This document shows positions 10,580-60,119 of a stretch of 60,119 bases of DNA, in pieces. The stretch lies in the NCBI GenBank assembly GCA_032718475.1, contig JAUCBJ010007483.1, positions 1-60,119 on the forward strand, read 5' to 3'. The stretch comes from Nemertoderma westbladi. Lineage: Eukaryota > Animalia > Xenacoelomorpha. The position numbers and the translations under genes were made by a program. Numbering within the stretch: position 1 is the stretch's first letter; every line of letters begins with the position of its first letter. The notes under the pieces were generated by a model. The model was not told where the DNA came from. It saw nothing but the letters and a program-made list of their open reading frames with translations, and did no database searches.

Positions 10580-10657
10580 CCGCTCCCAGAAAATGGGATT
10601 TGAGTCTATAAAATATACAAAATCACAGTTTCTAATATACGTAAATACTCTAAACAG

Positions 10658-22185: not shown

Positions 22186-22237
22186 GTTTACCGGTCGACC
22201 GGTACTTTCAACTTTATTGCTTACTGCAATAAAGTCA

Positions 22238-22248
22238 ATGACTGTTAT
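22238..22248 (-). promoter_or_regulatory. Non-tRNA primer-binding site candidate, element 1
   Basis: Abuts the 5' LTR, lacks TGG, and is 10/11 complementary to the LTR 11-mer at 23016-23026. Confidence 0.6.
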
Positions 22249-25711: not shown

Positions 25712-25869
25712 GATTTCTGGTTGGTGTTAGTTGGTGGCACTGATTCCGGTGTGACTGAGGATTTCCATAGATCCATTTCGATTTCCAATGTTTGGTCTGG
25801 GCTGCGCTGAGAAGCGGTGAAGAGTCTCATCAGTTCATTAGTTTACCTGTTAAAAGTCATATGTCTTAA

Positions 25870-34424: not shown

Positions 34425-34604
34425 TGGCCAGAACCTAATATTTGGTGCAAGTGACTTTTATTCTCAATTTTAGCTATGGACAACTGGCCAGAACCTAATA
34501 TTTGGTGCAAGTGACTTTTATTCTCAATTTTAGCTATGGACAACTGGCCAGAACCTAATATTTGGTGCAAGTGACTTTTATTCTCAATTTTAGCTATGGA
34601 CAAC
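34425..34604 (+). repeat. Perfect 60-bp triplication
   Basis: tggccagaacc...ctatggacaac occurs three times. Confidence 0.95.
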
Positions 34605-34605
34605 T

Positions 34606-38328: not shown

Positions 38329-39893
38329 CCCTATTAGTACCGGGATATAAAATGTTGTACAAATACCGGGGGGGGGGGGTCATATTGACCTCCCCCCCTC
38401 TAAAATCTACAAATTTTTACGAAAACGTCTGTTTTTTTGTTTGTACGTAGGTATCACTAGTCAGGATCCGACTGAAAAAAAAAAATTTCGAAAAAATGTA
38501 CTGGGGTGGTTATATTGCAGCACCAAATTTACAAGTAGTGCACAATTTTCAGAAAATTTGAAAGTTACATTTTTCGTCTAATTGTTTTTCAATACAGGTT
38601 TTCTGGGGCGCAAAATACATTGGAAAATATTTAAAAATGATATGATTACTATAAATGACTGTTTAGTCCTCTCTGCGTAGGAAAAAAATGAAAAAAACAA
38701 GTAACCAGCACTTTTCAGTTAGAACACAAATTTTTTAATTCACTTATACGATGCTATAAATTCACATTTTCAGGTTTTCTAGGGCGCTGATTCTAATGGA
38801 ATACATTTCTAAAATGCCCCATCATTGCTACTTGTATTTTTCGGCGTAATTTGGCAAATTTTGGTGCTAGGACCAAATTTCGTACCCATCACCAAAAAGT
38901 ACAAGTTTGCGATGTCCAGTGCTGTTTTTATTGATTCCATCGGATTCAGGACCCTCATAAACCCGTATAACGCAATAAACAAGATGATACTATCTACTGA
39001 TCAATTTGCTTATTTTCCAAAATTTGGTGCTGGCACAACAATTTTCACCCACCGGCGAAAAATACAAGTTTGAAAACTCTTATGAAATTTTTACTGATTT
39101 CATTGAATTCAGAACCCTCACAAACCCGTATAACGCAAGAAACAAGGTGACACAATCAATTTATATATTTGATGGTTTTCAAAATTTGGTGCTAGAACCA
39201 CATTTTGCACCCACTTCCGAAAAATACAAGTTTGAGATGCCTAGTTCGAAAATTATATATTTCATTCAATTCAGAATAGCCATAAACCTCTAAAACGTAA
39301 GAAATAAATTGTCACAAACAATTTTATCAATTGAATGGATTTTCAACATTTCGTGCTAGCACCAAAATTTGCACCCACCACCGAAAAATACAAGTTTGAT
39401 ACGCTTGGTGCAACTCGTATATATTTCATCGAAACCAGAACCCCAAAAAACCCCAATTGCGTAAAAAACAAGTTTCACACAATCAATTTACAAAATTGAC
39501 ATATTTCAAAATTTGGTGCTGGCACCAAAAATTGGCACCCACCGAAAAAAACAAGTTTGAAATTTCTAAATCAATTTATATGAATTCCATCCAATTTCTA
39601 ACACCAAAAAACCGGTGTAAATCAAAAATAGAGATGTTACAATTCATATTTAATGAAATGTAATTTTCAAAAAACGTCTCAAAAAAAGAGCCAAAAGTAG
39701 GGTTCAAAAATGGTGCTATAACTCGAAAACTACCAAATATTTTTGAAAACGGTTTTCACTACTAGGAAGACAATAGATTTTTAGGAAAAGTCATAAAATT
39801 TCAGATTCCCAACTGCGTTTGTTTCAGAATTATAATAAAAAAAACACGGATGGGGTCATATTGACCCCCCCCCCCCCCCCGGGTTTAATAGGG
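38329..39893 (-). mobile_element. piggyBac-like non-autonomous element, copy B
   Basis: TTAA-ccctatta...taataggg-TTAA termini. Inverted homolog of copy A. Confidence 0.88.
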
Positions 39894-40612
39894 TTAACTT
39901 TTATTCTTGCGGAGTTGTTCTTCTGACCAGGAAAGTACAGTCAAAATCGTGTCACATTTGGTAGGTGGAGAATCAATCAAAGGCCCAAAAGGAACTGAGT
40001 AGGTCCTTCGGGTATATGGCCGTCTTCTTGTGATTTACATTGTATGCAATCTGACAATTCCATTTGAGTTGTTACACTGTTATGGTGAACTGATGATACA
40101 CACCAAGAGACATCAGTTTTCAATGCTGAGTTTAAGATTTAACAGTTTCAAAAATCAAATGGGAAGATTGCTGTTGGTAAACAAATGCTGGTGGTAATGG
40201 TTTTATTTCCCCCATTGAATGGAAGAGAATCGATAGCAGTTAGATTTCTTACCCTTAATGAGTTTAATTCCTTTTTACTATATGTTCTAGGAATGTTTAT
40301 TTCACATGGTTTAGCACTGCCTCCACTTGATAGCTGTGTGAACTCTGAAGCTGTTACTGCATTTCTCGACATCCATTTGGTGTATAAACTTGTAAATCAA
40401 AATTATCACACCACACACTAATTATATTTGGACTATCATTGAATACATCTTTGAAACTGGAATATGTGGCCGATTTGCGAAATCTTAACACTTCATCAAA
40501 ACTAGCAACGTATCCATTCGAGTGTAAAATATCAATATGTTGCCTGGGTCCAAACTGGAAGTGTAGCTTTATAGCCAAACCAAGCATGGTCTGATTATAA
40601 GATTTACAGACT

Positions 40613-41805
40613 TGTTCGCGCTTTTGAAGACCTTTAGCAGTTTAACCTGCCAAAATTTATATGTCTTTTAGTTAATTAACACACCTTTAGCATACGACAA
40701 TATTTTATGCTAATAAACAAAACATTAGCCGAAGCCAGCCCATGCGCGATCATTCACCCGATGGATACACCCGGGAGACTGAATTCGGATGCTTAGATTT
40801 TATTATTGCAGTGTAAGGTTGCAGTGTAAGCCTACTGTATTATTCGATTGATCGCTAATATGTAATTTCTGACAGATATTATTAACTTTCGGGAAATATT
40901 AACAGTTCCTTTAGGACGTGGCGCTCTATCTATTTAAACAGAGCTAGGACTTATACTAAACGCAACGATAAGGCTTATGATTAAAGTATAAGGCGCATTC
41001 TTTAGGAAATGCTTTGTTACCAGTCACATCACACTCACAATCATGCACACTATTCTGCCGACCGTCAGTATATTTGATCACACATAAAGAGAACAGCAAT
41101 TGACTCAGGTAGTGTCTACTAAATAACATTAGATTCAATACACACCACATTGATATAAATCGCAATTGTTATATATAGCCTGTCTCTCTAACCTGTAGTG
41201 TATCAAGAAATTGGGAAACTTGGGTGATTTATCAATATTCTCCAAATGACAATATTTCATCAACAAATCGATACAATTAATAACTGACGGTAAATAGCAG
41301 TACAAACAATATGATTAGTGCAGTTAAATTAAGTGAGGTAACACCGCCGGTAACAGTTATACTTTCTATAATCTAAGCAGTTTTTGCTAGAGTTGTTCCA
41401 AAAGCCGGTGTTATGGCGAAAAATGGGAACACAACAACAGAATCCTATAAAGAATCATATGACTACATGACTATACGAGGATACCAACTACCCTTATTCC
41501 CCGAAGCTCCCGTCCAACACAGAGGATGAGCATACAGATAGGAAATTCAGTTCAGTAGCTCTGGGATAGGTCAAAATCAACGCCCACTCAAATTCTATTG
41601 GCAGATACGGACAGCAGGGCTGAGGCAACCTCCCTAAGCTGGTTGGCCGATCGAACAGCACCCAGATCCCTTCGCACAGCAAATCAGCCAATCAGCCGGT
41701 AGCTTGCATTATTCTAGCTAGATATCCCTTTTTTAGAGTATTCAGCGACTGGGGGGAACTGGTTAGCAAAGCAAATGAATCAGTTATCCCATAAAAGCTT
41801 TTACA
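40613..41805 (-). repeat. 3' LTR of element 2
   Basis: TGT...ACA, matches 51848-53040 with few substitutions, and has the same GGGAGCGG tract adjacent. Confidence 0.95.
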
Positions 41806-41883
41806 CCGCTCCCAGAAAATGGGATTTAAGTCTATAAAATATACAAAATCACAGTTTCTAAAATATAAAAATACTCTAAACAG

Positions 41884-43333
41884 TTAGTCTTTCTTGCGCG
41901 GACGGCGTTTACGCAGTTTTTTAAAGCTAGCCAGAGTCTTTTTCTCTTTGGGGCGAGCCACTTTACAAGGAGGGCTATAACTCCTGGGTGAAGGGTGCAA
42001 TATGATTGCATCAGAGGGTATAGGATTATGGTCGGTGTATCCGCCAGTCGAAGTGCCGAGTTGATTGACATCAACGTCGGGGGAGAGGGGTCTAACGGCC
42101 TTTAGAGCGCGTTTTAGGACAGCCGCTCTTACGGGTCCTTTACGAGTGGTCTGAACGAGAGCCGTAGGTGGACCATAGGCAGTTAGAAACTTCCTGGGTT
42201 TAATGGTTCTTTCCAACTCGCGTTCGCGGGCTCGGTATTCGTAAGGCCGTCGATATACTTCCTGTAACTCGGGGTATGAGTTAACAAATAAGTCTCCATA
42301 GTCCGGGTCCTGACGGATATAACTGATTAAGTTATAGGAATGAAGGTTGCTAGGATTAACCCTCCTGAGAAATTTGCGTACGAACTTGGTTGAAATACAT
42401 TCTCCGACGCGCTTCAGTAGTTCGTAACTCGATATGCGTGATTTCTGTTCGACAGAAGCGAATAGATAAGGATGGAACGCATAAACTCCTTCGTAAGCGC
42501 GTCCAGGATAATAACGATGGCGCGAATCACAATGTAAATCAGCGTTCGCTTACCAAGCTCTGATGTAACGTAGCGTGATCATTTCATCTACGCTTTCCAA
42601 ATCGTGATTAAAAAGGGCAATGGAAACTGGCGCGTCCCTTTAGTTGACACTGGTGACATTGAGTCATAAATTGAGGGCAAACCGCAAAAATGTGCAAGTT
42701 ATTGAGTCTGTAATACGCGCAATAAATTTCCATCGTCGGTTGTTCGTGGAAATAGGAACAGCGGACGTTTGTGTCCATGGGCGTAACATGGTCTCTCGAT
42801 GCGCATAACCGACAACGTTGCCGAGAAACATAGTTGGCATGGCGATAATCGTACGCAGTGAGACACTGTGGACCTTGATATCATTCTAGGAGGTAATCGT
42901 TGTCGTTGTTCCGGGCGCGATAGGCTGAATCTCCTCAGATTCTAGGCATATTGGTTCGTCTTCCCAGTCTGTTACGAATAGAATTTTCGTGATCTATTCT
43001 CGGTTTATCGTTACGACGCCGCTGGGTATGATATTTAAATAGAACCATTTCCCTTTTGGTGTCTACATCGTCCGTATCATGTAAATCGATAGGATGGCCG
43101 GTAGTTAGGAGGTCAATATACGTATTATTACGATTCGTATAGCGAGCGGTGAATTTTCGATAGTCCAATTCACGCGTAAGTTGCTCTTGGGACATCGGCG
43201 GTTCGATATAGCGACCATCGTCCTCCGTAATGGTTGGATCGGTTTCACCGCGTATCAAGCTATCCACAAATGCTTGTAAAGGTAGAGTATATCGCTCTCT
43301 AATACCAAGGTCATCTTCTATCAATTCCGTCAT
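41884..43333 (-). pseudogene. Element 2 accessory ORF2, internally deleted and frameshifted
   Basis: Homologous to 10658-11680 and 13335-13702. About 1.65 kb is missing at a junction near 42965. Confidence 0.8.
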
Positions 43334-44953
43334 ATCTGCTATCTGAGTTTATTAATATCAGTATGAGATAATATTTAGGCAAGCGGGCGTCGCTGCCTAC
43401 TAGTCTTTGCCCCCGGACAGTGGGTTTCTCAGCGCCGATGTACCGTCGTCGCGGTGTTTACACCAACATGTAGCAACAGCACGACAACGATAACCGGCAC
43501 AAGTCCCACCACTGTCCGTCCCAAAGGCTTGAATCCACTTGAGGTTATCTCGGTAGAGTTAGGGCTACTTTACAATTGCGATTAGCTACTGTAAACACAC
43601 TTTAGTAGTAACATTCACCTATAAACGCACAAATTCCATACAATCATTACTTACTGCACACATGCAGGCCATTTGTCCGTTAATCAGTGTCTTCCAGAAT
43701 GTCACGTTATTACTATGTATCCTTGGATACTAATAGTGCGCTATGTATATTCTTATGCTACGCAATGGGGCAAGCTTTTTATTGTTCCTTTAACTTGCTT
43801 CTAATTCTAGCGTGGGTGTTGCCATGGTGACATTATGGAAAACTAGCGGTAGAATTAGGGTAATTCTCATGCATACAGATCTGGGATGCTATTTAATAGT
43901 AATTCTTTAATTGTCAATATCCTCTTTATGCATGATTTTATAAATTTTATCGGCTATTGACTATATGTTGGAGATTCTCGCACTCTAGTACACTCAATAT
44001 GAATCTCCGCTCCCATGATCTATTAATTACTGGAATTTTGGGAATGTTATAAATTGCACAAAATGACAATTTATGAAATTCATTTAAATATGAATTTAAA
44101 TTTATTCCCGTGAATTTTATTATTTGATGTTAAATTGACACCAATTTTATTCCAGAGCATATCTGGGGACTTAGGATCCTTGATTCTATAAAATAGTCCT
44201 TCTAAGAATATCGGTAAATACTGCGATATCTTAATTGACTAGAAATTTTAAAGGATCGGGATTTTACAGATTTTAATAAATATTAAATTAATATTTAGGA
44301 TGAGCACCGATTTATTCCAGAACTTGTCTGGGGACGTTAACCACTGATTCTAGAATTTGTCTTTCAAGTATATCGGTGGGTGCCACGATATCTTAATCGA
44401 CTAGAATTACAGATGGTCAAAAAGTTTAACAGATTTATTTGCGATTTACGCTACTGTTAGAGGGACATCACGCTACTATATGTATTATTTGTTATAAGGT
44501 AGAAGAGCAATATCGCACGAAGCAATGTCAGTGTGAAGAGGCAAGTCGTTTCCAAGGTCTACCCAGAGCTTGGTTTAGCCGAGACACGAGGATCTGAACT
44601 TTGCATTCCTAATACTCTGCCTACCAATAATACTTTAATATAGTAGTGGCTTTATTGTACTTTAATAAGTACTGACATGTCATCTTACTATAGTCTCGCA
44701 TTTATAATATAATACGGACAGTAAGGAAAGAGAAAAATAAATATTTCTTGCCGTCGCACTAAATATATTGTAAGTAATTAAATACGTAATAAACACTAAT
44801 ATATTGCACTAATTTACTAAATATTCTAAAATAACATTCTACTAAATAAAATTAAAGAAAACGATTATAATAAAATTACATAATAATACATACATAAATA
44901 TAAAATAAAAACAAATATAAAATGATATAGTCACACGCCCACTCCATATGTTA

Positions 44954-47900
44954 TTACGTTATGGAGTCCCTAGATATTTGTCGGATTAGGGAAGTGGTCG
45001 TAGGAAGAGTATCTTGCCTTCCATAGTTTCCGGACAGTTTTCGGTCTCTTTCCAGTAAACATAAACGACTAGCTGGGCGATTGAGTTGTTGTGTTAGTTT
45101 CTCCGCTCCCTTGGCCTGTCTACTCTCCGCCGTGGTAAGATGAGGAGGCCATTCTTCTTCTTCTTTACTTAAGAAGTCGGATCCACCTAACCAGCTTGGA
45201 GTATCTATCAGTTCTTGAGGAGTTGCTCCTCTGGAAGCGATGTCGGCTGGATTAATCGTCCCAAGGCAATGTCTCCATTGATCTACATCGGAGTTAATAT
45301 CGTCATTATCTGAGGAGTATGGTGTTCCCTCAGTTGGATCGTCCACATCACTGCTCTCCACTTCCCATTCCTTTACTTGGTATACCTGTTGTTGAGGTAA
45401 TCTCTCTTTGAGAGTTCTACGGGAAGGGCCAGTGAAGTACCAACCTACTCTAGTTCTTACCGCATAGGTTTGTAGTGGCTGCGGTTGAGCAGGCCGTTTC
45501 TCCAATGTCTCGAGCGCCTCATGCGCGTTTTGGCCGATGAGTATTTGCACTCCAGGATAATCTGTCTGGAATCGAGGTATCTTAAGATGTTGGATGCTCT
45601 CATCCTCGTCCCAATTATAAAGGTCTGCTTGGGTAGTAGCGAAGTTCTTTATAGCCACCATTTTTACCGACCTTATACCTTGTGCTCCTAATTTATCCTG
45701 GGGGGTGGACAACACACCTACATAGTAATCTGCCGTTAGGGTAGATTTCCAAACCTGCATAATTCCTGACATATTCAATTTAGTCCGGAACTTGGGTTGT
45801 CCAGCAAAGATATCTTCGGCTAGTTCTTGATCGATGAATGTTCCTGTGCTGCCGGAGTCAAGGAGGGCGTTCACTATGTAGCTTTTGTTAAGACCGTGAA
45901 CTCTTACTTGAACTACAGGAAATTCTCTGATTCCTACGTTGGAAGCTGGAGCTTTCCAAGATGGTTGTTTGGCGAAAGTAGTTGGGGGAAACTCATCGTT
46001 GATGTCCTTTTCGTAAGTAAGTGCTCGATACACTGCGGTATTTATTAGATAACAGGATTCATTGGTGTCGGAGAATTCGTCAGTATAGAATCCTTCCATC
46101 TCAGACTCTTGATCAGTGTCGTTTACGTCACTGAATTGGACATGTAGTTCGGGCTCACTTACCTGACTCTGTCTGTCTCGTTCGAACTCACTGTGTAACA
46201 AGATGTGATGTTTCGCGCCACACTTTGCACACTTTATGTCGGAGTAACAGGTTCGCCGTTGATGTCCTGGTCTGAGGCAATTATAGCATAACCGCTTGTC
46301 CCACAGGACTGTACGTCTGTCTACAAGGGATTTCTTTAGAAATTCAGCACACGCACTCAAACGGTGGGGCCCGTCGCACAGCGCACATTTTGGTTTGATG
46401 TTACTCACCTTAACTTGGTTAACGTTATGCAATCTCGTTCTTTCTTCGGGCTTTCTTCCGTGAATTCTCTTAAGAGACGTAGGAGGAGTTGTTGTTACCT
46501 GTTCTCTCCTGTCACTGGTTCGAGACTTGTATTTACTTACGTCTTTATAGGTCTTGTTGTCATAGTAAGATTTTGCTGTGTCTTTCCCGCTGTCCTCTTC
46601 TTGGGAAGCTTGGCTTTCGCCGTCGTCAGTGTAACACACCGGTGTTACTCTTCTCCTAGAAGTGGGTTTCTCACTTACCTTATTTTCCGATGTTTTCTCT
46701 CTGGACTGCTTGATGAGTTGTAGTTTTACTTCACTATCTAAGAAGGACATGAGATCAGCCATGGTAGGACTTCGTCGTTGTTGTTCATTCATGTACAACA
46801 CTTTCTTGTCCCAGCGTGTACATACTCCACCCTTTGGTAAAGTAGAGACTACGGCTCCAATAACCATGGAACTCTGATATTCATGCGACTTACCTAACCA
46901 GTCCAGTTGTCTACAGATCTCTTGAATTTCATCGGAAAACTCTATAATCCCGCTACTAAGGAAGTGTCGGGGGGCTACTAATTTTGCATACAAATACTTA
47001 GCTATGTTATCCTTGTTACCATACCTGATGTTTAATGTATCCCAAACTTGTCTTAATCCATCTGGATGTCCAATAAACTTTAACGCCATTAACTTGGGAG
47101 GTCCTTCCAAGCACTTGATGAGGAATCTAAGTTTCTCTCCGTTAGATAGTACAGAGTTCTGTATGCTATCTTTGTAATATTCGTTGAAAGGTAACCATTT
47201 CATCTCATCTCCATTGAATTTGACGATCTCTCCCACTTTGACCGCTTGGCGGGCTTCTGTTCTAGCCATCTGACGCGTAAAGCTTTCTTGGGCCATCGTG
47301 TTATTTAATATCGAATTATCGGTATATAAATTTCTCGGATCATTATCAGGTCTATAGGGAATATCATTAATAACAGGTCTATAATCACCCTTAATAGGGT
47401 TTGTTATAGGAGTTTCAACTTCACTAGCAGTATAGATGCGTGTAGGCTCCACACCTTGCGCATGTAATACTTCAGGCCTAACAGGTTGACACAATGTTAC
47501 AGGGGGTATTGGTATGCCCTTTTGGATATTGACTAATTTGTCGCGTTCTAGTGCGATACTTTGCTGCACTTCTTGCAACTGTGCTCTACCTTCCCTCACT
47601 GTTCCCTTAAGTTGGTGGACAGTCTCCTGCATCTGTCCTAGCAGGAGATTCATCCCCCGCCGTCCCTCTTCTACCCACTCAACCGCCGAAGCGGGAGTCG
47701 CCAACATAGTAGCGGGCTGACGCGGGACGACGGGAGACAAATCTTTGATTTCTCTCTCTGCTATCCGGACAGGGATATTCTCTTGGACTGTTCTACCGGG
47801 TACAGGCAGTGTAGTACTATGTAAAGGGAATTTAGAGTTAAGCTCTGGAAGTACAGGGGTCTCTAACACAGAAGTGACTTTGGGAACGACAGGCCTAATT

Positions 47901-49603
47901 ATTTCAGGCTCATCAACTATTGTAGGGAGTCTTTTGACCTTAATACTTTGGGCTGTAGGTTCTATACTACTCAAGTCTGTGCTAGCTAGCTGTCTTCTAA
48001 CAGCTGGGGGCAAATCAGGCAATTTGCGACGGTAAGATGTTTTTCTACGCCTACTTAGATGAGATCTATTTCCTCCGCCTTCAGGATCGGTGGTCTCGCC
48101 TTCCTCCGAGGATGTGTATCCCTGGCGCTTGGGAGTAGATTTTCTCATCATCTGCATTTGATTAGCAGTAAACTGTTTATTTATACTGTCTTGCGTCTCT
48201 TGCAGATTTTCCAACTCCAGTTGGATAGTCTCCTCAGAAGCTCTCCGTTCTGCTTCTGCCACTGCTGCTTTTCTTTCTGCTTCTGCTTCTGCCGCCTTTC
48301 TTTCGGCTTCTGCTTCTGCTTCTGCCGACTTTCTTTCGGCTTCTGCTTCTGCTTCTGCCGACTTTCTTTCGGCTTCTGCTTCTGCCGACTTTCTTTCGGC
48401 TTCTGCTTCTGCCGCCGCTGCTGCTGCCACCTTTCTTTTCTCTATCCATTCTTTCTTTACTTGTTCTTCTCGGACTCTAGTGAGGCGGAGTTTTTCATCA
48501 CATTCAGCTTGGTTTGCAGCTAACATTTCGGCATCGATTGAGTCCAACACAAGCTTGGTTCCTTCACTATTAGGGGAAAGTCCAGACAGCCGTCTCCTCA
48601 ACTCTTCGTCTCCTAGGAATCGCTGATAGTCGGACAAATAAATGTCGATAGCGTCTCTAGTTCGCGGTTTCTCGGCGGTCTCTTCGCTTTCCGCTTGAGA
48701 AAGGGTGACATCAGTTTGTTCTTCATAGGGTGATCTCTCAGCCAGCTGGGATTTCCACTGGGCCGTTTCCTGTACTTTGAGATCTACCCGATGTAACCAA
48801 GTTTTGACAGCAACTTGCAGCGACGTGTCCTGTCTTCTCTTGGAAGTTTCCTCAAAGGCTGAGAGGATTAGTCGAATGCGTAGGGTTCTTTCGCGTACTT
48901 GGTATAGCAGCTCTTCCTGCTCTTGAGGTCCTTGAAGTTGTCGAAACAGTTGTTCTTCCAATCGCTCCAAGGAGCCGAAGAATCCCTGCACATATCCTGC
49001 TGCCGACCTCTTCCAAACAGCTGGATCCATTGTATCTTTAGCCACTCCCATCCTGTGTATATCTTCCCAAGTAGCCTCGGACAGATCCAACGGGAGTCCG
49101 AGTCCGGGAAAGTTCCATTGTGACTCGACAATAGACATCAATTCTTCCCTGGCGTATCCCGCATAATTATCTTGGGTCGCTCGCTTATTCCTCGCCCAGT
49201 CGGCTTGATGTTCCTCCACCGCAATGAATATAGTAGTTAGCACTGCAGCAGGAAGGGTAAGAAGGGGGTCCGAGTAGACTGTAGCAGCCATCTGCACTCC
49301 GCTTTCGGGGGTTAGCTCTACCGTATCTGAACTACTGGAGCTATCGGGTCGCTGGGAAGTAGGTTCTTGACCAAGATGTTGCTGCGATGGGACAACTGCC
49401 TCTTGGTTCCATTTGACCTGTGCCCGAGTGCCTATGATGGACCTATGGTGGATTAGCCTAGGGTCTGATACTACTGGAGGGATGACCTTTCTTGCAGTAG
49501 GAGGTGAGCTGAACTCCTTTCTTAATCGCTCCACACTCCTATCTGTGTCACAGATAGTTGTATCGATCAGACTGTCTGACAGGTTTTGCTGAGTGTCAGA
49601 CAT
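44954..49603 (-). CDS. gag: Intact 1549-aa Bel/Pao Gag-aspartic protease fused to an RNase H C-terminal remnant
   Basis: Coiled-coil N-terminus, DUF1759-like KFNGDEMKW...EKLRFLIKCLEG, triple zinc knuckle (CALCDGPHRLSAC, CYNCLRPGHQRRTC, CAKCGAKHHILLH), protease ALLDSGS/ILIG/RTRVGW, then QWRHCLGTINPADIASRG...WP. Confidence 0.93.
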   Translation of the reverse strand: MSDTQQNLSDSLIDTTICDTDRSVERLRKEFSSPPTARKVIPPVVSDPRLIHHRSIIGTRAQVKWNQEAVVPSQQHLGQEPTSQRPDSSSSSDTVELTPESGVQMAATVYSDPLLTLPAAVLTTIFIAVEEHQADWARNKRATQDNYAGYAREELMSIVESQWNFPGLGLPLDLSEATWEDIHRMGVAKDTMDPAVWKRSAAGYVQGFFGSLERLEEQLFRQLQGPQEQEELLYQVRERTLRIRLILSAFEETSKRRQDTSLQVAVKTWLHRVDLKVQETAQWKSQLAERSPYEEQTDVTLSQAESEETAEKPRTRDAIDIYLSDYQRFLGDEELRRRLSGLSPNSEGTKLVLDSIDAEMLAANQAECDEKLRLTRVREEQVKKEWIEKRKVAAAAAAEAEAERKSAEAEAERKSAEAEAEAERKSAEAEAEAERKAAEAEAERKAAVAEAERRASEETIQLELENLQETQDSINKQFTANQMQMMRKSTPKRQGYTSSEEGETTDPEGGGNRSHLSRRRKTSYRRKLPDLPPAVRRQLASTDLSSIEPTAQSIKVKRLPTIVDEPEIIRPVVPKVTSVLETPVLPELNSKFPLHSTTLPVPGRTVQENIPVRIAEREIKDLSPVVPRQPATMLATPASAVEWVEEGRRGMNLLLGQMQETVHQLKGTVREGRAQLQEVQQSIALERDKLVNIQKGIPIPPVTLCQPVRPEVLHAQGVEPTRIYTASEVETPITNPIKGDYRPVINDIPYRPDNDPRNLYTDNSILNNTMAQESFTRQMARTEARQAVKVGEIVKFNGDEMKWLPFNEYYKDSIQNSVLSNGEKLRFLIKCLEGPPKLMALKFIGHPDGLRQVWDTLNIRYGNKDNIAKYLYAKLVAPRHFLSSGIIEFSDEIQEICRQLDWLGKSHEYQSSMVIGAVVSTLPKGGVCTRWDKKVLYMNEQQRRSPTMADLMSFLDSEVKLQLIKQSREKTSENKVSEKPTSRRRVTPVCYTDDGESQASQEEDSGKDTAKSYYDNKTYKDVSKYKSRTSDRREQVTTTPPTSLKRIHGRKPEERTRLHNVNQVKVSNIKPKCALCDGPHRLSACAEFLKKSLVDRRTVLWDKRLCYNCLRPGHQRRTCYSDIKCAKCGAKHHILLHSEFERDRQSQVSEPELHVQFSDVNDTDQESEMEGFYTDEFSDTNESCYLINTAVYRALTYEKDINDEFPPTTFAKQPSWKAPASNVGIREFPVVQVRVHGLNKSYIVNALLDSGSTGTFIDQELAEDIFAGQPKFRTKLNMSGIMQVWKSTLTADYYVGVLSTPQDKLGAQGIRSVKMVAIKNFATTQADLYNWDEDESIQHLKIPRFQTDYPGVQILIGQNAHEALETLEKRPAQPQPLQTYAVRTRVGWYFTGPSRRTLKERLPQQQVYQVKEWEVESSDVDDPTEGTPYSSDNDDINSDVDQWRHCLGTINPADIASRGATPQELIDTPSWLGGSDFLSKEEEEWPPHLTTAESRQAKGAEKLTQQLNRPASRLCLLERDRKLSGNYGRQDTLPTTTSLIRQISRDSIT

Positions 49604-51836
49604 GTTTAGCTATACGGTTGAATGTCTACTACTATAGTTTCAGTTAAAGCAGGTCTGGTAATTCAGTATGACCGCAAGCCTAGCGATTTATTACCTATAC
49701 CGTTACTCGGTGTAACGTGATATATATACAATATATTAGAATACCGGTATGCTTATAATATATATATAAGTATTATTACAGACTAGATTTGTCACAGAGT
49801 ACCGGTATATAATTTTAGCACAAATATATATAAATATATAATAGGCCTATCGTGAATACCGGTAGACAGCTTACACTTATAGTATATATAAGTATAATTA
49901 TGAACTAGAATTAATTACAGAATACCGGTATGATTTCAGCTCAAATTTATAGAAATAAATATAATAAGCCTATGGTAAGTACCGGTATGTCAATTATTTT
50001 TAGAATAATTGAATTTCTGAATATTTTAGGGTTACTTGGTTACTTTAACTTACTTTATTACCGTTATTTAAGCAGTAGTCCAACTGATATTGAGACCTAG
50101 TTGTTGTATGGCAGGCCTACTATTTATAAATCGTTTGAGTTGATTTATAATATATATATACCCGTTTAAATGGGTTTTTGTCAATATTTGAAATAAATGT
50201 TATTATTTCTGGGGGGTCACTACACAGAAGCTGTGCGCTCTCAGTGAAGTGCTATTTAGTTGACACTAAAACTGATAATTCTAATTTACCTAAGTTACTT
50301 AATACTACAAATTACTTACGATATGGGTGAGATTAATTCTCTAATTAAACACAACAAAATATTACGTACGAAATTTTTAGGGTAATTTTACAGGAAGTCT
50401 ACAAACCAGACTAACAAAGGGTTAGATTACTGGTTATTACAACGGACAGGGTACTACGGTATTTGAAATAATAAGTAGCAGTAAATATATTGCGTTGTCC
50501 AGATAGGAAAATACCACCACCTGACGACCTATAACAGTATCGCTATAGGTACTACGTTATGTATCACGGAGTGTTCCTACCTAGAAGTTAATAGTGCTAA
50601 CGAATGTGCCTATCAACCACTTTACAACACAAATATACTAATTACTTCGGAAAGCACTGTACACTAAACCCTAAATTAGGTACAAGTACCGGTATAACCA
50701 ATAATCAGTAGTTAAATATACTTGAACAGTTAAAAGAACCACGGCATCTGCTGGAGTGACCAGAGCACAAAGTCACCAGTCTTGTCCTACGCCAAGCAGC
50801 CCGTGTAGTACCGGGGTTAATTTAACTATAACGGTATGTATAACAAGCACAATTACTGTAGGAATAAACTTGGGGACATGAATGTTGCGAATAATCGCAT
50901 AAACTCTGAATAATAAATATTACGCTACCCGTACAGAATACTCAAACAAAATACAAACCAAACGCTGGCAGACTACCACCAAGCCTAAATAAACTACCGT
51001 ACGTGTAGATTCTGAAATTGTTAGTTAGTATGCGTTCTAACACGGTAGTACAACTTATTCTTTAAGAGGGGATTGACCTTACAGCATATGGCTGCCCCAA
51101 CTTACTAACGGCACTTTGTCAGACAAACTCCACACACCCAGCAATCTCTTCAGACCTAATAATAGCTAGACAACAATCCAGCCTACAAAATATCTGAGTA
51201 ATAACTATTACGGTACCTGAACAGACCACACAAACAAACACAGGCTAAAACGCTGGCAGACTACGATCAAGCCTAAATAAACTACAGTATATGCAGATTC
51301 TGAAACAGTTAGTTAGTATGCGTTCTAACACGGTAGTACGACTTATTCTTTAAGAGGGGATTGACCTTACAGCATATGGCTGCCCCAACTTACTAACGGC
51401 ACTTTATCAGACAAACTCTACACACGCCGTAATCTCTCCAAACCCAACAACAGTCAGACAGCAGTTCAGCCTACAATTATCTGAACAATCTGAACAGACT
51501 TACACGTCTTCAGCTCAATATTAACTTACTAGGAAATAAAACCGACAGAAATAAGTAAAATCTCAATAAAAACCAGGGCGGCCGTCCCTGATAAATACTA
51601 AGACCTACCGGTATACAATAATCAAATTCGAATAATACTAATGTACTTATACAGCAGTACCGGTTAGGACAGTTGGGCCTACAGACCTACAGAAGTACCG
51701 GTTCTGGCAGTTGGACCTACGGACCTACAGCAGTACCGGTTCTGGCAGTTGGGCCTACTGACCTACAGAAGTACCGGTTCAGGTTTACCGGTCACTACGG
51801 TATTTTGCAACCTTATTGCTTACTGCAATAAGATCG

Positions 51837-51847
51837 ATAACTGTTAC
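51837..51847 (-). promoter_or_regulatory. Non-tRNA primer-binding site candidate, element 2
   Basis: ataactgttac is the exact reverse complement of gtaacagttat at 52585-52595 in the LTR. Confidence 0.65.
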
Positions 51848-53040
51848 TGTTCGCGCTTTTGAAGACCTTTAGCAGTTTAACCTGCCAAAATTTATATGTC
51901 TTTAAGTTAATTAACACACCTTTAGCATACGACAATATTTTATGCTAATAAACAAAACATTAGCCGAAGCCAGCCCATGCGCGATCATTCACCCGATGGA
52001 TACACCCGGGAGGCTAAATTCGGATGCTTAGATTTTATTATTGCAGTGTAAGGTTGCAGTGTAAGCCTACTGTATTATTCGATTGATCGCTAATATGTAA
52101 TTTCTGACAGATATTATTAACTTTCGGGAAATATTAACAGTTCCTTTAGGACGTGGCGCTCTATCTATTTAAACAGAGCTAGGTCTTATACTAAACGCAA
52201 CGATAAGGCTTATGATTAAAGTATAAGGCGCATTCTTTAGGAAATGCTTTGTTACCAGTCACATCACACTCACAATCATGCACACTATTCTGCCGACCGT
52301 CAGTATATTTGATCACACATAAAGAGAACAGCAATTGACTCAGGTAGTGTCTACTAAATAACATTAGATTCAATACACACCACATTGATATAAATCGCAA
52401 TTGTTATATATAGCCTGTCTCTCTAACCTGTAGTGTATCAAGAAATTGGGAAATTTGGGTGATTTATCAATATTCTCCAAATGACAATATTTCATCAACA
52501 AATCGATACAATTAATAACTGACGGTAAATAGCAGTACAAACAATATGATTAGTGCAGTTAAATTAAGTGAGGTAACACCGCCGGTAACAGTTATACTTT
52601 CTATAATCTAAGCAGTTTTTGCTAGAGTTGTTCCAAAAGCCGGTGTTATGGCGAAAAATGGGAACACAACAACAGAATCCTATAAAGAATCATATGACTA
52701 CATGACTATACGAGGATACCAACTACCCTTATTCCCCGAAGCTCCCGTCCAACACAGAGGATGAGCATACAGATAGGAAATTCAGTTCAGTAGCTCTGGG
52801 ATAGGTCAAAATCAACGCCCACTCAAATTCTATTGGCCGATACGGACAGCAGGGCTGAGGCAACCTCCCTAAGCTGGTTGGCCGATCGAACAGCACCCAG
52901 ATCCCTTCGCACAGCAAATCAGCCAATCAGCCGGTAGCTTGCATTATTCTAGCTAGATATCCCTTTTTTAGAGTATTCAGCGACTGGGGGGAACTGGTTA
53001 GCAAAGCAAATGAATCAGTTATCCCACAAAAGCTTTTACA
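51848..53040 (-). repeat. 5' LTR of element 2
   Basis: TGT...ACA, near-identical to 40613-41805. Confidence 0.95.
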
Positions 53041-53984
53041 AGACTTGTGATTGTATTGATTGAGCGAGACATATACTCTCCCTGGACAAATCACCACCTG
53101 ACTTAAGGTTGAAAGGATTTCCAATAATGTTGGGCTTGTGAATTGAAGAGCACTTTCCTTTGAGAAATTTCTCAACCTGTAAGAAGTTTAGGTGTCAATA
53201 TATTTCCTAAATATAAGGGAGACTAACGGGTTTGTAACTTCAGTACAAATTTTGTGGCATATAATGGCGATGTCAGTTCTCTCCGCACCATTATTACTGG
53301 TCACCAGTTTTATAGCACCTGGTAACCTGGTAACGCCTCTTTAAAACAAATTAATGAAGCACATTCCTCTATTTTCAAATTAACTTGCCCATTTCCAAAA
53401 TGGTCTTTTAACAGATTAATCAGCTCGAAGCGATCTTTCCGAATCTTTGAAGAACATGATTATCATGTTCTGAAACATAATAAATAGTTGAAATCATCAA
53501 CGCACGGAAAAAGATTAAATATTGTAAATAATGAAGTAATTATAATAAATTATGTATAGAGTAAATATTAAACCAGTAAATAGTAAACTAGTAAACTAGT
53601 AAATATTAAAGTATTCAATGAATGAAGGACTGTAAAAAATTAAAGTTTGCAAGATGAACAGTTTTCCAAGAAACTTGGCAGTATTACTGCCGCTTCTATG
53701 GGTACTTTTATTGTAAGTATAAGAAATATACTAACAACAAAAGTACTCATTCTCACTATTATGTAAATCTCACCTGTAATGTTTCTAGATTAACTCTTAA
53801 ACAAATCGTAAAGTTCAACAGAAGTCCATATCGCCGATGGTTTGTGGTGCGTTTCTTCTAAAATACGATCAAATGCTTGTGCTGTGGAATTACTAGCAAC
53901 ATGATCTCTGTCCTCAAAAACATTATCATTAAATATATATTATGTTATAGTACATTTTGATAATGCTCTCCATAGCAAAAAATA

Positions 53985-54685: not shown

Positions 54686-54957
54686 CGGGCATTTAGGGGG
54701 TGGTGTGGTATGATTGTTTGTGTTCACTGGTGGCTTGCACGAACATGCACGTCGGTCATACACATTCGTGCCACCATGGAAATTGAATCAAGTAATAAAT
54801 TCATAATGCTCAAATATTCAACAATTTATTTAATAATTATTATTAGTTAATCTGTTGATACATACTAAAACATCAGACAAACTGAAAAGACCTGAAACAA
54901 CCTATCCCATGCTTAGAGGTGGAATGTACTGAAAGGAATACAGAACTAATACCGTGC

Positions 54958-55214
54958 TATACCGACCTATAAAATAGCTACTAAAAGCTATACCGACCTA
55001 TAAAATGGCTACTAAAAGCTATACCGACCTATAAAATAGCTACTAAAAGCTATACCGACCTATAAAATGGCTACTAAAAGCTATACCGACCTATAAAATG
55101 GCTACTAAAAGCTATACCGACCTATAAAATGGCTACTAATAGCTATACCGACCTATAAAATGGCTACTAAAAGCTATACCGACCTATAAAATGGCTACTA
55201 AAAGCTATACCGAC
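54958..55214 (+). repeat. 31-bp minisatellite, about 8 copies
   Basis: Unit tataccgacctataaaatggctactaaaagc. Confidence 0.95.
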
Positions 55215-55784
55215 TACGTAAAACCCTTGTCTACACCGGCCTATACCGAGCTAAAACCTGCCCATACCCGCCTAGATCGAGCTATAACTTTGCAAAACAA
55301 AGCTATAATGGCACGTTTCACGGTAAAGTACGTGACTGTCAGAGACAGTCTTTTGCAAATTACATATACAGCATACAGTATCGTCCCTTTCATGCACTTT
55401 TCCTGTAAAACGGCATTTTCGATTTTAATTTTGTTTGAAAGTAATATTCCAGGATTTTGGTCTTATTTACTTTTAAATCCATTAAATGTAACGATTTTAA
55501 ACAAAAACAGTTATGGTATTGGAATTGTGTAACATATTAGGTAGGAAACTATGTATAGGGATATAGGTTGTTTAAAAAAAATATTACATTTTTTACAATG
55601 ATTACTCAAAAAGCATTAAAACCCTTAGACAAATTCGATTATTAAGTTTGAAAAATATAAATCAAATCTCCCTCTTTCATAATAAACAACAATTCTAGCT
55701 CCTGATTCGTTGTTTCCAATTTTATATCAACGTTTCCCGGGCTTACCTTATTTATAATAGTAAAATGTATTATATAGGTTGTTT

Positions 55785-56951: not shown

Positions 56952-58418
56952 ATGCATTACCCAGTCCTGCAACATCAACACCACCAACTACAGCATCAAA
57001 TTCAGCATCACCTTCAACAACAGCATCACCATCAACTACGGCATCACCATCAACAACGGCATCACCGTCAACAACAGCATCACCTTCAACTACAGCATCA
57101 CCTTCAACAACGGCATCACCTTCAACTATGGCATCACCTTCGACAACAGCATCACCTTCAACAACGGCATCACCTTCAACTACAGCAACACCTTCAACAA
57201 CGGCATCACCTTCAACTACAGCATCACCTTCAACAACATCATCACCTCCAACAACGACATCACCTTCAACTACAGCATCACTTTCAACAATGGCATCACC
57301 TTCAACTACGACATCACCTTCAACTACAGCATCACCTTCAACAACAACATCACCTTCAACTACGGCAACACCTTCGACAACAGCATCACCTTCAACTACG
57401 GCATCACTTTCAACAACAGCATCACCTTCAACAACAACATCACCTTCAACTACAGCATCACCTTCAACAACAACATCACCTTCAACTACGGCAACACCTT
57501 CGACAACAGCATCACCTTCAACTACGGCATCACTTTCAACAACAGCATCACCTTCAACAACAACATCACCTTCAACTACAGCATCACCTTCAACAACAGC
57601 ATCACCTTCAACTACGGCAACACCTTCGACAACAGCATCACCTTCAACAACAGCATTACCTTCAACTACAGCATCACCTTCAACAACGGCATCACCTTCA
57701 ACTACGGCATCACCTTTGACAACACCATCACCTTCAACAACGGCATCACATTCAACTACAGCAACACCTTCAACAACGGCATCACCTTCAACTACAGCAA
57801 CACCTTCAACAACGGCATCACCTTCAACTACGGCATCACCTTCAACAACAGCTTCACCTTCAACTACGGCATCACTTTCAACAACAGCATCACCTTCAAC
57901 AACAACATCACCTTCAACAACAGCATCACCTTCAACTACGGAATCACCTTCAACAACAGCATCACCTTCAACTACAGCATCACCTTCAACAACGACATCA
58001 CCATCAACTATGGCATCACCTTCAACAACAGCTTCACCTTCAACTATGGCATCACTTTCAACAACATCATCAACTACAGCAGCTACCACAGAGGCATCTA
58101 CAGTGCCAACAACAATGGCAATTCACCAGCCCCCCACTACAACATTTTTCCAAGCATCTTTTCATGGAAATTGCGATGTAGTTACAAGTAATGCTATCAC
58201 ACAAGCTGATGTAATATCACAATATGTTAATTTTGTCATAAACACATTGCAGAGTGTTGGAGAAATTACTGTGACAGTTCAAAATATCACTTGCGGCTCA
58301 ATAATTCTACCTACTGCAATAACTGTATCAGATGGTGATATGAGTACTCAAGATTTAAGCGAGTCAGTGGAATCTATCTTACAACAGGAATCTTCTAACT
58401 GGCCACCAATCACATCTG
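56952..58418 (+). CDS. Host exon encoding a mucin-like (TTASPS)n PTS region followed by an SEA-like domain
   Basis: Acceptor tatttctacag ends at 56951 (phase 1, in frame with ORF 57128-58426) and candidate donor gtgagt is at 58419. Roughly 60 18-bp Thr/Ser/Pro repeats precede a domain with NITCGSII, resembling the SEA GSVVV motif. Confidence 0.75.
57003..58080 (+). repeat. Coding 18-bp tandem repeat (acagcatcaccttcaact-like)
   Basis: Directly visible periodicity that keeps several reading frames open. Confidence 0.95.
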
Positions 58419-60119
58419 GTGAGTGAAACTCTTTCATTCAAAGGCACCATATATCCGATAATCTTTAAGTATAATATCACCTACAGTCCATGTCGAGAAG
58501 TCACCGATAGGTAATATTGAAACCGCAATTAAATCAGAGTTTTGGCTCAGTTGGTCAATTGGTTATCGACGTTGCTAGACGCTGGATGGATGTTATAATG
58601 CCGGAATTATTTATGGTATAAGATCAATTTCTATGTTGGTTTATGAGAATGCGAAACCCATTCTCCAGGATGGCTTTGATGATGGTTTTGTACAATTTGT
58701 AAACGAAGGTGATTTGCAAATCGCTTTCGCATCAGAGGGAGTGGCTATGTTTGTCCATGATATCATACGTGGATCCAATGCTACAACTATTCCACTACCA
58801 TCAACAACTACTGCCATCGTCACAGAGGAAATCTCAACCACCATCTACGGAACCTGGAACAATGGAAACTACAGAGTCAGCTGCAACAACATATGAAACT
58901 TCAACAAAGTTTCATATATTAATAGCTGGATTTCTTTGGAAACTCTTTTAATCTTCGGGCAATTATTGTTGCTTTGATATTTCACTTTAGTTGAAGGTGT
59001 AATTGTCTATGACTCTGAACTTGATATGTTCAGCATTTATTTATATTATATTATATACAATATAATATATATATGTGAGTGTGTGTCTGTGTAAATATTC
59101 CATATTGTTGAATACAGTCCCTATCTCATTCTGAATATTATTTCTCAAACTGGGTATCATTTCTCAAACCTTTTACTAATGATAGTCAACGGAGAATTTC
59201 AGTAGGTAAGACTGGGGTAAGAGTTGAGAAATCAGAAAGATGCAGCCAGCTCAATCTAACTCAAACTAGAGTCTGGCGCCATGGTTTGAGTTAGGTTGAC
59301 TTCCAACTGTGTCATACTCAGCATTACTCTTCCTGTACGGGATGGATAATTACTCTGGTTGAGTGAGGCACCACATGGGGAAGGGGCCTCTGTCTGTTGC
59401 TTGGGCTCTTGAGTTAATGGGTTGAATTACATAAGCTGGGCAGGCCGGCTTGCGTGTGTCTCATAAAAGACATGTCAATCACGCAGTTCCTTTGTGGGCT
59501 TTACTAAATGTATGTTGTTAACTAAACCACACTGGCTCGGTCTGTTTGTAGAGAAAGTTTTAATTCTGGGAATATTGTTGTGGGAAATTGGTGCTCTGTT
59601 GTCTGTCTGTTTGATGTCAATTGGTGCCTTACAAGACATATCAGTTTAAAAATCTAATGGTTAATTAAGAATTATTAGTGCATATGGGACCTCGCAACAC
59701 CCCCCCCCCCCCCCCCCCTCCCATAAATATGGCCCTGTCTATAATTACAGAGGTTTCCTCTGGCCCCTTTGCCCGGTATCCCACCCACACCCGGATGTAT
59801 TGCGAATAATTGTGTTGACGATGTAATAGAGAATTAAACATTAGTAAAACATTAAAGTTAAACATTAGAAACATTAGCGAAATATACGCGACATTAAAAT
59901 AAATTTATAAAATTGGTTGGTTATATTATATGGTTATATTTTAATGTAAAATAACGTTAATATGTTATGAGTCATACATACTTAATAAATGTAATAAAAA
60001 TTAATAAATCTTCAGTTTAATAATTTAGCATATAATTTTTTTATTCTGAAATTTAAAAATAAATTGAGTCACTGAGTCTGCAACTTAATTCTCACTGTCT
60101 ACTGGAGTTAATTACACAC

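Follow-up and report, generated by a model that had tools for sequence, protein, structure and literature searches.

Two pol-less Bel/Pao elements sharing a fused Gag-protease frame in the genome of Nemertoderma westbladi

How does an LTR element fare whose long open frame leads from Gag and protease straight into a remnant of pol? The question is raised by a stretch of 60,119 nucleotides of Nemertoderma westbladi DNA (contig JAUCBJ010007483.1 of assembly GCA_032718475.1; hereafter the window), which harbors two such elements, E1 and E2. Non-autonomous LTR elements are usually seen as coding-free (LARD, TRIM) or Gag-only (TR-GAG) shells. The reading we favor, with a probability of about 0.72, is that E1 and E2 are a pol-less Bel/Pao pair with a shared fused frame, from which reverse transcriptase (RT), the RNase H core and integrase (IN) were excised, and that the family likely borrows these enzymes.

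Independent insertion of the two elements

Both elements are located on the minus strand, E2 at 40613-53040 (12,428 bp) and E1 at 9304-23531 (14,228 bp). These lengths agree with the 12-14 kb given in a preliminary description of the locus. Their ends and the non-coding parts of E2 are:

51848-53040, minus strand: E2 5′ LTR, 1193 bp, TGT..ACA
40613-41805, minus strand: E2 3′ LTR, with a short purine-rich tract just before it (41806-41813)
53041-53045 and 40608-40612: E2 target-site duplication AGACT
49604-51847, minus strand: E2 leader, non-coding, 2.2 kb, with tandem repeats
42976-44953, minus strand: E2 non-coding spacer, without profile or Pfam match
22249-23531, minus strand: E1 5′ LTR
9304-10579, minus strand: E1 3′ LTR
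23532-23536 and 9299-9303: E1 target duplication CAGTC

The leader of E2 contains tandem repeats of 38 bp (51650-51780), 288 bp (50905-51489) and 123 bp (49761-49987). A TGG-type primer-binding site was not found in the first bases after the 5′ LTR of E2, nor were tRNA genes for a primer-binding-site match detected within the window.

The TG..CA LTR ends and the short target duplication sought as Bel/Pao features were present in both elements, the ends being TGT..ACA and the duplications being 5 bp long and of different sequence. The norm for Bel/Pao is 4-6 bp. Within each element the LTRs are nearly identical (99.4% over 1193 columns in E2, 98.6% over 1284 columns in E1). An LTR of E1 can be aligned to one of E2 only in the R-U5 half (82%) and in the first ~80 nt; the likeness over aligned columns is 77%, and gap columns number approximately 265-275. 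This bears out the earlier statement that the U3 regions differ. E1 and E2 are independent insertions, because their target duplications and flanks differ and their LTRs have diverged from each other. As the preliminary description had proposed from separate duplications and LTR pairs, the pol-less form has thus inserted at least twice.

An origin of E1 and E2 as dead deletion derivatives, spread by segmental duplication or produced by an assembly error, is hardly credible. They do share their orientation and the same 60-kb window, and other repeats flank them (e.g., 8123-8729 vs 27202-27793), but such an origin is at odds with the different duplications and flanks, with LTRs that are much closer within a copy than between copies, and with the strong codon-position bias described below. 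Furthermore, sequencing runs of four studies contain thousands of distinct contigs that match the family, many of them crossing a deletion joint.

The fused reading frame and its deletion joints

The long frame of E2 (ORF1) begins with an ATG at 49603 and is open to 44954 (1551 aa from stop to stop); that all 1549 codons are open, as stated earlier, was confirmed. Its parts and its counterpart in E1 are:

44954-49603, minus strand: E2 ORF1, Gag-protease-pol-remnant fusion, 1549 codons and stop
47255-49603, minus strand: Gag N-terminal extension, ~785 residues, no known family
46832-47218, minus strand: Gag core, DUF1759, residues 798-926 (Pfam and custom profile)
46193-46387, minus strand: three zinc knuckles, residues 1075-1139, aligning to P0002, P0004 and P0005
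45407-45967, minus strand: aspartic protease, residues 1215-1401
45293-45406, minus strand: acidic linker, residues 1402-1439, outside the profile alignment (between positions 649 and 1201)
45092-45292, minus strand: pol island, 67 residues (1440-1506), WRH..NPAD..SRG..W..G..FL..WP
44954-45091, minus strand: final 45 codons with stop, weakly matching the extreme C-terminus of Bel/Pao Pol (end of DUF5641)
15340-20021, minus strand: E1 ORF1, architecture and two joints as in E2

In E1 the frame is interrupted twice, by a stop (19389-19391) and by an 11-bp frameshift (near 16812).

The domains were assigned by Pfam, by BLASTP and by a custom profile made from eight full-length Bel/Pao proteins (1791 positions), which was compared with 1373 six-frame pieces of the window. 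This profile gave six domain matches, all of them inside the two ORF1s and covering its positions 111-349 (the Gag core), 325-649 (knuckles and protease, E 1.4e-36) and 1201-1267 (the tail part). DUF1759 was recognized in E2 with an E-value of 8.3e-12 (45.8 bits vs a cut-off of 25.4). The N-terminal extension carries an AEAEAERK-type repeat around 48248-48417, and its best score in an atlas look-up (0.78) is a lead only. The protease, whose D-S-G motif corresponds to residues 1251-1253 (45851-45859), gave an E-value of 7e-19 in BLASTP to P0002 and a weak Asp_protease_2 match in Pfam (residues 1233-1267, 16.2 bits, under its cut-off); by sequence it had no match in PDB with E < 0.3. Hence a DUF1759 Gag followed by CCHC knuckles and, after Gag, a retroviral-type aspartic protease (custom profile and BLASTP) were found in the same order as in full-length Bel/Pao proteins (Belpaoviridae; P0002, P0004, P0005). 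The latter also have RVT_1, Peptidase_A17 (the RNase H-like region), Integrase_H2C2, rve and DUF5641, which, except for the end of DUF5641, are missing here, whereas ~480 extra N-terminal Gag residues, the 2.2 kb leader, a spacer of ~3 kb and a second gene are peculiar to the elements of the window. Among the relatives found, none exceeded 27% protein identity.

The loss of pol became apparent from the BLASTP alignment of E2 ORF1 with P0002. Residues 1075-1396, comprising the knuckles and the protease, align to residues 510-768, and the next aligned block, residues 1440-1488, corresponds to 1336-1384. The jump between the two blocks omits approximately 570 residues of RT and RNase H, and there is no integrase after the second. 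That no RT or integrase exists between the LTRs, a central claim of the preliminary description, held in both elements by every method applied. The custom profile, which served as the all-frame HMM scan suggested as a check, gave no match at positions 650-1200 and 1268-1791 in any of the 1373 six-frame pieces, tblastn with nine Bel/Pao proteins over the whole window revealed no RT or IN at E < 1 inside E1 or E2, and a Pfam scan of 16 ORF pieces disclosed no remnant of either. No autonomous partner came to light, nor does the window contain an RT or IN of this kind. Since RT, Peptidase_A17 and integrase, in this order the hallmark of a Bel/Pao Pol, are absent in all six frames, the element is to be classed, as judged from its sequence, as a Bel/Pao derivative and not as a complete member.

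The structure of the remnant departs from the first account in several respects. Both copies do join the protease through an acidic linker to the NPAD stretch. Its counterpart in full-length relatives, to which WR(H/Y)..NPAD..SRG..W.GP.FL..WP is 45% identical, follows the RNase H-like domain and precedes the zinc domain of integrase. Instead of a single in-frame pol deletion there are two, flanking the 67-residue island, the first joint being located at the downstream end of the acidic linker (about 45285-45297) and the second at about 45091. Nor does the frame stop right after the WP motif; 45 codons follow, whose weak match to the extreme Pol C-terminus scores 8.0, a value reached by none of 1000 shuffles (highest 7.8). 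Both joints are gap-free in the alignment of E1 and E2, and therefore the deletions are older than the split of the two copies.

Searches for relatives of the whole arrangement yielded little. In a collection of 5.8 billion proteins, 9 of 4161 candidates of near lengths matched the Gag-protease-tail protein (best 27% identical), and none of 2716 shorter candidates contained the protease-tail part. Viral and metagenome contigs did not include a relative of the element, and an exact search of contigs for 28 bases of the protease sequence gave no match.

Selection on ORF1 and the second gene

Over the 1550 codons of ORF1, E1 and E2 differ by 129.7 silent and 146.3 replacement changes, distributed 78/66/133 over the codon positions, in line with the earlier impression that many differences are synonymous. 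The comparison of dN/dS that had been proposed as a check gave 0.31 overall (Fisher p 1e-20), a value which rests on two copies only and is not near 1. By region, dN/dS amounted to 0.30-0.35 in the N-terminal extension, 0.17 in Gag (residues 790-1070, p 5e-6) and 0.08 in the protease (p 7e-4; an estimate from nine differences). The island and tail showed nine replacement and no silent differences, and the contrast between protease and tail was significant (p 0.002). Non-coding controls were flat by codon position (47/42/46 and 40/34/38). A similar picture emerged from the indels: ORF1 has four events in 4650 bp, three of them in frame, vs 22 events in 2244 bp of the leader and 14 in 1974 bp of the spacer, of which 3 and 2, respectively, are multiples of three. 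By these measures Gag and protease are evidently under purifying selection since the deletion, and the pol remnant, i.e., island plus tail, shows no apparent sign of constraint. The values of dN/dS below 1 suggest a possible cis role for the element's own products.

An alternative origin of this signal has to be weighed. The elements might be mobilized in trans with no need for their own proteins, the selection having been imported by template switching with co-packaged helper RNA, which would continually replace Gag-protease by sequence selected in the helper. The divergence between E1 and E2 is in fact a mosaic, ranging from 1% to 20% per 300 bp, with the N-terminal repeat region reaching 20% and the block from protease to tail standing at ~1%, and the interiors are 93-95% alike as compared with 77% for the LTRs; recombination would give both patterns. 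Moreover, silent sites of ORF1 have diverged more (0.136) than non-coding sequence (~0.05-0.07), so that recombination or uneven mutation may be shaping the selection signal. However, the island next to the protease exhibits the opposite pattern of substitution though it would have been overwritten too, the N-terminal extension and the second gene are constrained as well, and both joints are intact in both copies. We therefore regard imported selection as an unlikely explanation and retain the reading of a pol-less pair whose Gag and protease are themselves maintained.

The second gene (ORF2) is situated near the 3′ LTR:

10658-12448, minus strand: E1 ORF2, ~596 codons, one in-frame stop (11171-11173) that is absent from E2
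41884-42968, minus strand: E2 ORF2 remnant, N-terminal part gone, two 1-bp indels

ORF2 is nearly whole in E1, whereas a 1.6-kb deletion in E2 has removed its first 40%. With a dN/dS of 0.135 (p 8e-14) and differences of 14/11/40 by codon position, ORF2 is apparently under strong purifying constraint. It is this gene, encoding an orphan zinc-knuckle protein, that is new. Thus, of the earlier designation of the element as Gag-protease-only, the retention of its own capsid and protease stands, but the word "only" has to be dropped.

The ORF2 product contains a triple module of CCHC and CCHC-like knuckles. None of 1125 candidates from the 5.8 billion proteins matched it; among 1.84 billion representatives there was one match (E 2.8e-4), a distant protein without a Pfam family that has the triple zinc-knuckle module in common with ORF2. 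The best score in the atlas look-up (0.83) is again a lead only, and an AlphaFold model computed without alignment was unusable (mean pLDDT 29). We considered whether ORF2 could be env-like and rejected this, as a hydrophobic segment is lacking (highest 19-residue Kyte-Doolittle mean 1.1). A copy of the ORF1 knuckles was rejected likewise (best BLASTP E 0.28).

Both ORF2 and the N-terminal extension are conserved, neither can be assigned to a known family, and one of them could in principle be an unrecognised polymerase or integrase, making the element autonomous after all. We consider this extremely improbable, because the sole recognisable feature of ORF2 is the triple knuckle module, Pfam and profiles gave no polymerase or DDE-type match, and E2, whose ORF1 is intact, lacks the first 40% of ORF2.

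Borrowed enzymes, known analogues and abundance

If Pol is borrowed from a helper, as we infer, the following course can be envisaged. The 5′ LTR would drive the genomic RNA, and ORF1 would give rise to a Gag-protease polyprotein that builds and matures the particle. RT and integrase would be supplied by the Gag-Pol of a related autonomous element and packed into the same particles. The sites for the helper's enzymes would be marked by the conserved LTR ends, the tract beside the 3′ LTR and the 5-bp duplications. The ORF2 protein would be a putative nucleic-acid-binding accessory factor.

Comparable elements are known from other retroelement families. PMC4350172 describes TR-GAG elements of plants as short (<4 kb) LTR elements with a single Gag-only ORF, whose Gag is related to Copia and Gypsy. 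The likeness to TR-GAG claimed in the preliminary description holds as a functional analogy: the element is non-autonomous, keeps its own Gag and lacks mobility enzymes, yet there are signs of activity (young LTR pairs, many contigs sharing a joint), as TR-GAG also appears active according to the same text. It does not extend to the features that define TR-GAG there, since our elements measure 12,428 and 14,228 bp, are of the Bel/Pao kind, have protease as well as pol remnants in their frame, and possess ORF2.

A further parallel is offered by the mouse IAP 1-delta-1 proviruses. In PMC6466679, a 1.9 kb deletion is reported to remove part of gag and pol, leaving other pol functions, and to create a novel fusion ORF; this element is non-autonomous and makes most new insertions nonetheless, needs the proteins of full-length relatives in trans, and its own product acts in cis. 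An internal in-frame deletion giving a fusion ORF is present here too, with protease, island and Pol C-terminus in one frame. The differences are the retroelement family and the extent of the loss, Gag and protease being whole here and RT, RNase H and IN lost by two deletions. LARD, TRIM and the tandem-repeat LTR elements of Culex are, according to PMC3286476, coding-free and occur in many copies without an identified master copy. They resemble our elements in these copy features, in the absence of RT and IN and in the tandem repeats between the LTRs, but differ in coding capacity, two long frames being maintained by purifying selection here. Full-text searching of limited extent did not retrieve a Gag-protease-only Bel/Pao lineage from the literature.

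The lineage may indicate which functions a hyper-parasitic retroelement retains, with capsid, protease and the ORF2 zinc-knuckle protein selected and the pol remnant drifting, and would amount to a natural dissection of cis and trans functions in a little-studied retroelement family. LTR annotation pipelines based on RT would miss or mislabel such a family, which seems to occupy a sizeable part of the host genome.

The abundance was estimated from assembled contigs of four public runs, each from a different study (X1, X3, X4 and X5, the last only guessed to be RNA). At a likeness of at least 85%, 109,636 contigs of X1, 27,234 of X3, 1,016 of X4 and 688 of X5 were placed on E2. Position 45289, inside the first joint, was covered by at least 66, 14, 9 and 2 distinct contigs, respectively; among the contigs listed, number 19 of X4 and number 28 of X5 extend across it by more than 31 letters in either direction. 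In X1 the summed depth at 45289 was 442,464, while a mismatch-free flank contig had 29.1. Contig depth is not copy number, and the sample behind the window's assembly may have supplied the best DNA run. Short of a census, these figures point roughly to thousands of copies. Taken together, the contigs portray a very abundant family in which many sequence-distinct copies share the first joint.

A more far-reaching interpretation, which we regard as tentative and rather doubtful, is that of a two-gene Bel/Pao "satellite" that keeps a private capsid, a private protease and ORF2 under purifying selection, with ORF2 as a new accessory factor for hijacking helper Pol. With thousands of copies it would have outgrown its helper and rank among the most abundant repeats of the host, and it would be the first lineage of this type described for Belpaoviridae.

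Near the first joint the contig depth dips, with loose ends and joints. Eight contigs of X1 break off at 45297, and in X5 one breaks off at 45299 (255 loose letters) and two at 45285 (98 loose letters). At the second joint, 45091, loose contig ends occur in both directions. Contigs ending at the joints are a hint that fuller relatives may exist.

Two insertions of a Bel/Pao-type element

By self-comparison of the window, two Bel/Pao-type LTR elements, E1 and E2, were delimited.

9304-23531 (14,228 bp), minus strand: E1, LTR pair of 1.28 kb, 98.6% alike, target duplication CAGTC
40613-53040 (12,428 bp), minus strand: E2, LTR pair of 1.19 kb, 99.4% alike, target duplication AGACT

All LTRs end in TGT..ACA, and the pairs are young. 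While the internal regions of E1 and E2 are 93-95% alike, their LTRs are much more diverged (merely 77% alike, with ~265-275 gap columns), and BLAST aligned these solely in the R-U5 half (82%) and the first ~80 nt. Since each element also has its own flanks and target duplication, we concluded that E1 and E2 are two independent insertions from two sub-lineages and no duplicated block. The separate target duplications, near-identical LTR pairs and different U3s noted in the preliminary description were thus corroborated.

The bases adjoining the 5' LTR (51818-51847 in E2, 22219-22248 in E1) differ between the elements and lack a TGG start in both. No usual primer-binding site was evident beside either 5' LTR, and the site is therefore predicted to be of an unusual kind or located elsewhere. 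At 972-1641, a region resembling the R-U5 half of each of the four LTRs (78-79% alike) probably represents a solo LTR, or a truncated one, from a related family.

Architecture of ORF1 and the missing pol

As had been described, the long frame ORF1 is fully open in E2, where its 1549 codons begin with an ATG at 49603 and are closed by the stop codon 44954-44956 (minus strand). It comprises:

first ~785 residues: N-terminal extension, no known family
residues 798-926: Gag (Pfam DUF1759, E 8.3e-12)
after Gag: three zinc knuckles
after the knuckles: aspartic protease with D-S-G, weak Pfam match

Full-length Bel/Pao proteins for comparison were obtained as nine matches among 4161 candidates (best identity 27%). 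BLASTP aligned residues 1075-1396 (knuckles, protease) to positions 510-768 of one such protein, P0002, and residues 1440-1488 to its positions 1336-1384 with 45% identity. In full-length proteins the latter stretch follows Pfam's Peptidase_A17, which is the RNase H-like region downstream of RT, and precedes the zinc domain of integrase. None of 16 ORF pieces from both elements gave a Pfam match to RT or IN. Inside the elements, tblastn with the nine proteins (E<1) matched just Gag, the knuckles, the protease and an island of 67 pol residues (1440-1506, NPAD..SRG..WP); two weak matches lay outside, at 55068-55322 (E 0.13) and 58529-58609 (E 0.2). An unfiltered search of 1373 stop-to-stop six-frame pieces used a custom profile of eight full-length proteins (1791 positions). 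Its six domain matches at E<1 (profile positions 111-349, 325-649 and 1201-1267) all fell in the two ORF1s, and positions 650-1200 and 1268-1791 matched none of the pieces. These scans affirmed the reported lack of RT and integrase between the LTRs.

The island ends at residue 1506, and the stretch of 62 residues that follows the WP motif (1490-1551) weakly matched the extreme Pol C-terminus (end of DUF5641) with a score of 8.0, reached by none of 1000 shuffles (highest 7.8). Therefore, the in-frame loss of pol proposed earlier stands, and it comprises two deletions flanking the island instead of one. The proposed order of protease, acidic linker, NPAD..SRG..WP tail and stop also holds, except that the stop is preceded by the weak C-terminal match. 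The frame thus reads protease, linker, island, Pol C-terminus, stop, with RT and the core of RNase H lost before the island and integrase lost after it. Both joints (~45285-45297 and ~45091) are in frame; because E1 and E2 align without gaps across both, the deletions are older than the split of the two elements.

Constraint on ORF1 and on a second gene

Over 1550 codons, ORF1 of E1 and E2 shows 129.7 silent and 146.3 replacement differences (78/66/133 by codon position), in agreement with the earlier impression that many differences are synonymous. Estimated from these two copies only, dN/dS was 0.31 for the whole ORF1 (Fisher p 1e-20), 0.30-0.35 for the N-terminal extension (p 3e-9 and 6e-7), 0.17 for Gag (p 5e-6) and 0.08 for the protease (7 silent, 2 replacement; p 7e-4). 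Residues 1400-1551, with nine replacement differences (one within the NPAD motif) and no silent one, are compatible with neutrality (p 0.22) and unlike Gag plus protease (p 6e-4) or the protease alone (p 0.002). The indels tell the same story as dN/dS: four events, three of which preserve the frame, occur in the 4650 bp of ORF1, against 22 in the 2244-bp leader and 14 in the 1974-bp spacer, where single-base events predominate.

Along the alignment, E1 and E2 diverge in a mosaic fashion, by 1-20% per 300 bp, and silent divergence (0.136) exceeds non-coding divergence. With only two copies compared, recombination with relatives has therefore to be reckoned with as a rival explanation for part of the selection signal. 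The block from protease to tail diverges by ~1%, the surroundings of the AEAEAERK repeat by 20% and the segment 43448-43747 by 12%; the overall pattern hints at recombination among sub-lineages.

Near the 3' LTR lies a second gene, ORF2. In E1 its frame (12448 to 10658) spans the boundary of 1.6 kb absent from E2 (13343-11742) and consists of 424 codons, one stop not common to E2, and 171 further codons. The 357 codons common to both elements differ at 14/11/40 sites by codon position, with 40 silent versus 21 replacement differences (dN/dS 0.135, p 8e-14), and non-coding controls for the codon-position test were flat. Thus, the lineage carried two constrained genes, and the earlier designation as Gag-protease-only is right in that Gag and protease are kept, but not in the word "only". 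ORF2 is nearly whole in E1, where one stop and a frameshift of 11 bp disrupt ORF1; in E2 the reverse holds. The ORF2 protein has no Pfam family and no membrane segment, and structure prediction without alignment gave no usable fold (pLDDT 29). A single distant relative was found among 1.84 billion representatives (E 2.8e-4), sharing a triple zinc-knuckle module and the subsequent motif. Derivation of ORF2 as a copy of the ORF1 knuckles was rejected on comparison of the two.

Copies in public runs, mode of spread and other repeats

Seven of the eight listed sequencing runs contain part of ORF1. Four of these seven, from four studies, were compared with E2: X1, X3 and X4 (organism A) and X5 (organism B).

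Contigs matching E2 and summed depth in public runs
Run: contigs at >=85% likeness; on 44954-45800; distinct over 45289; summed depth at 45289
X1: 109,636; 9,807; at least 66; 442,464
X3: 27,234; 2,253; at least 14; 142,017
X4: 1,016; 138; at least 9; -
X5: 688; 81; at least 2; -

Many distinct copies thus carry the first joint, within which 45289 lies; it is bridged by X4 contig 19 (45226-45379) and X5 contig 28 (45215-45343). Mismatch-free single flank contigs had depths of 29.1 (X1) and 23.6 (X3), which on a rough reading gives thousands of copy-equivalents, depth not being a copy number. The window itself may have been assembled from the sample behind the best DNA run. On 40400-53300, 133 of the 688 contigs of X5, guessed to be RNA, are at least 99% alike to the element; because this run bears another species label, the family is common to, or was very recently exchanged between, the two labelled organisms.

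Depth drops within the acidic linker (45331-45417). Loose ends at 45343 (26 contigs in X1, 3 in X3, 1 in X5) and at 45392-45401 pair with the X4 joints 45343>45409 and 45336>45409, and were read as marking sub-families whose linker is shorter or different. A few other contigs match E2 up to a joint and diverge beyond it: eight in X1 at 45297, one in X5 at 45299 (255 loose letters) and two at 45285 (98 loose letters), with loose ends in both directions at 45091. These places coincide with the breakpoints that the protein alignments had implied, consistent with relatives carrying extra sequence there.

The original observation is confirmed as real, and its first interpretation is largely right, though incomplete. 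RNA would be transcribed from the 5' LTR, and the Gag-protease polyprotein of ORF1 would build and mature particles, into which RT and integrase from the Gag-Pol of a related autonomous element would be assembled; the ORF2 product may be an accessory nucleic-acid-binding factor. Of the proposed non-autonomous 12-14 kb lineage, the constraint on its own capsid and protease was verified; the borrowing of Pol is likely but inferred, and no helper was found in the protein collections and viral or metagenome contigs searched.

The lineage derives from Bel/Pao elements, yet without Pol is no complete member. The suggested likeness to plant TR-GAG elements (PMC4350172) holds for the way of working and not for membership, since E1 and E2 are 12-14 kb long, have two genes and keep the protease. 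The nearest animal analogue is mouse IAP 1-delta-1 (PMC6466679), a fusion ORF from an internal deletion that is non-autonomous but gives rise to most new insertions, with a product working in cis. In Culex, LTR elements are known that contain tandem repeats, encode no protein and have no identified master copy (PMC3286476). No Gag-protease-only Bel/Pao lineage was among the papers listed by full-text searches.

Between E1 and E2 lies a 55-bp satellite (28658-33757, also 27991-28273) of 92.5 copies that match at 92%; G strongly outweighs C in it (GC skew up to 0.52). Two open frames, 34716-36047 (plus) and 35976-36974 (minus), partially match Pfam RVT_1 (E 1.9e-7 and 2e-5, respectively) and are fragments of other retroelements, unmatched by the Bel/Pao profile. 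The segment 28279-28638 matches 35936-36293 (98.9% alike), which places a copy of this region directly beside the satellite. Satellite and RT fragments are bracketed by a ~1.5 kb inverted repeat (25866-27369 and 38357-39897, 90-93% alike), part of which is a ~163-bp tandem repeat (38855-39562). A separate dispersed family outside E1 and E2 forms a direct repeat (8123-8729 and 27202-27793, 87.6% alike). At 56996-58072, a 36-bp tandem repeat (29.9 copies) remains open in several frames of both strands, giving ORFs of 296-495 aa; the repeat is of low complexity and not evidently a gene. Short tandem arrays lie at 5962-6531 (19 bp x 30), 54956-55214 (31 bp x 8.4) and 34425-34605 (60 bp x 3, 100% identity).
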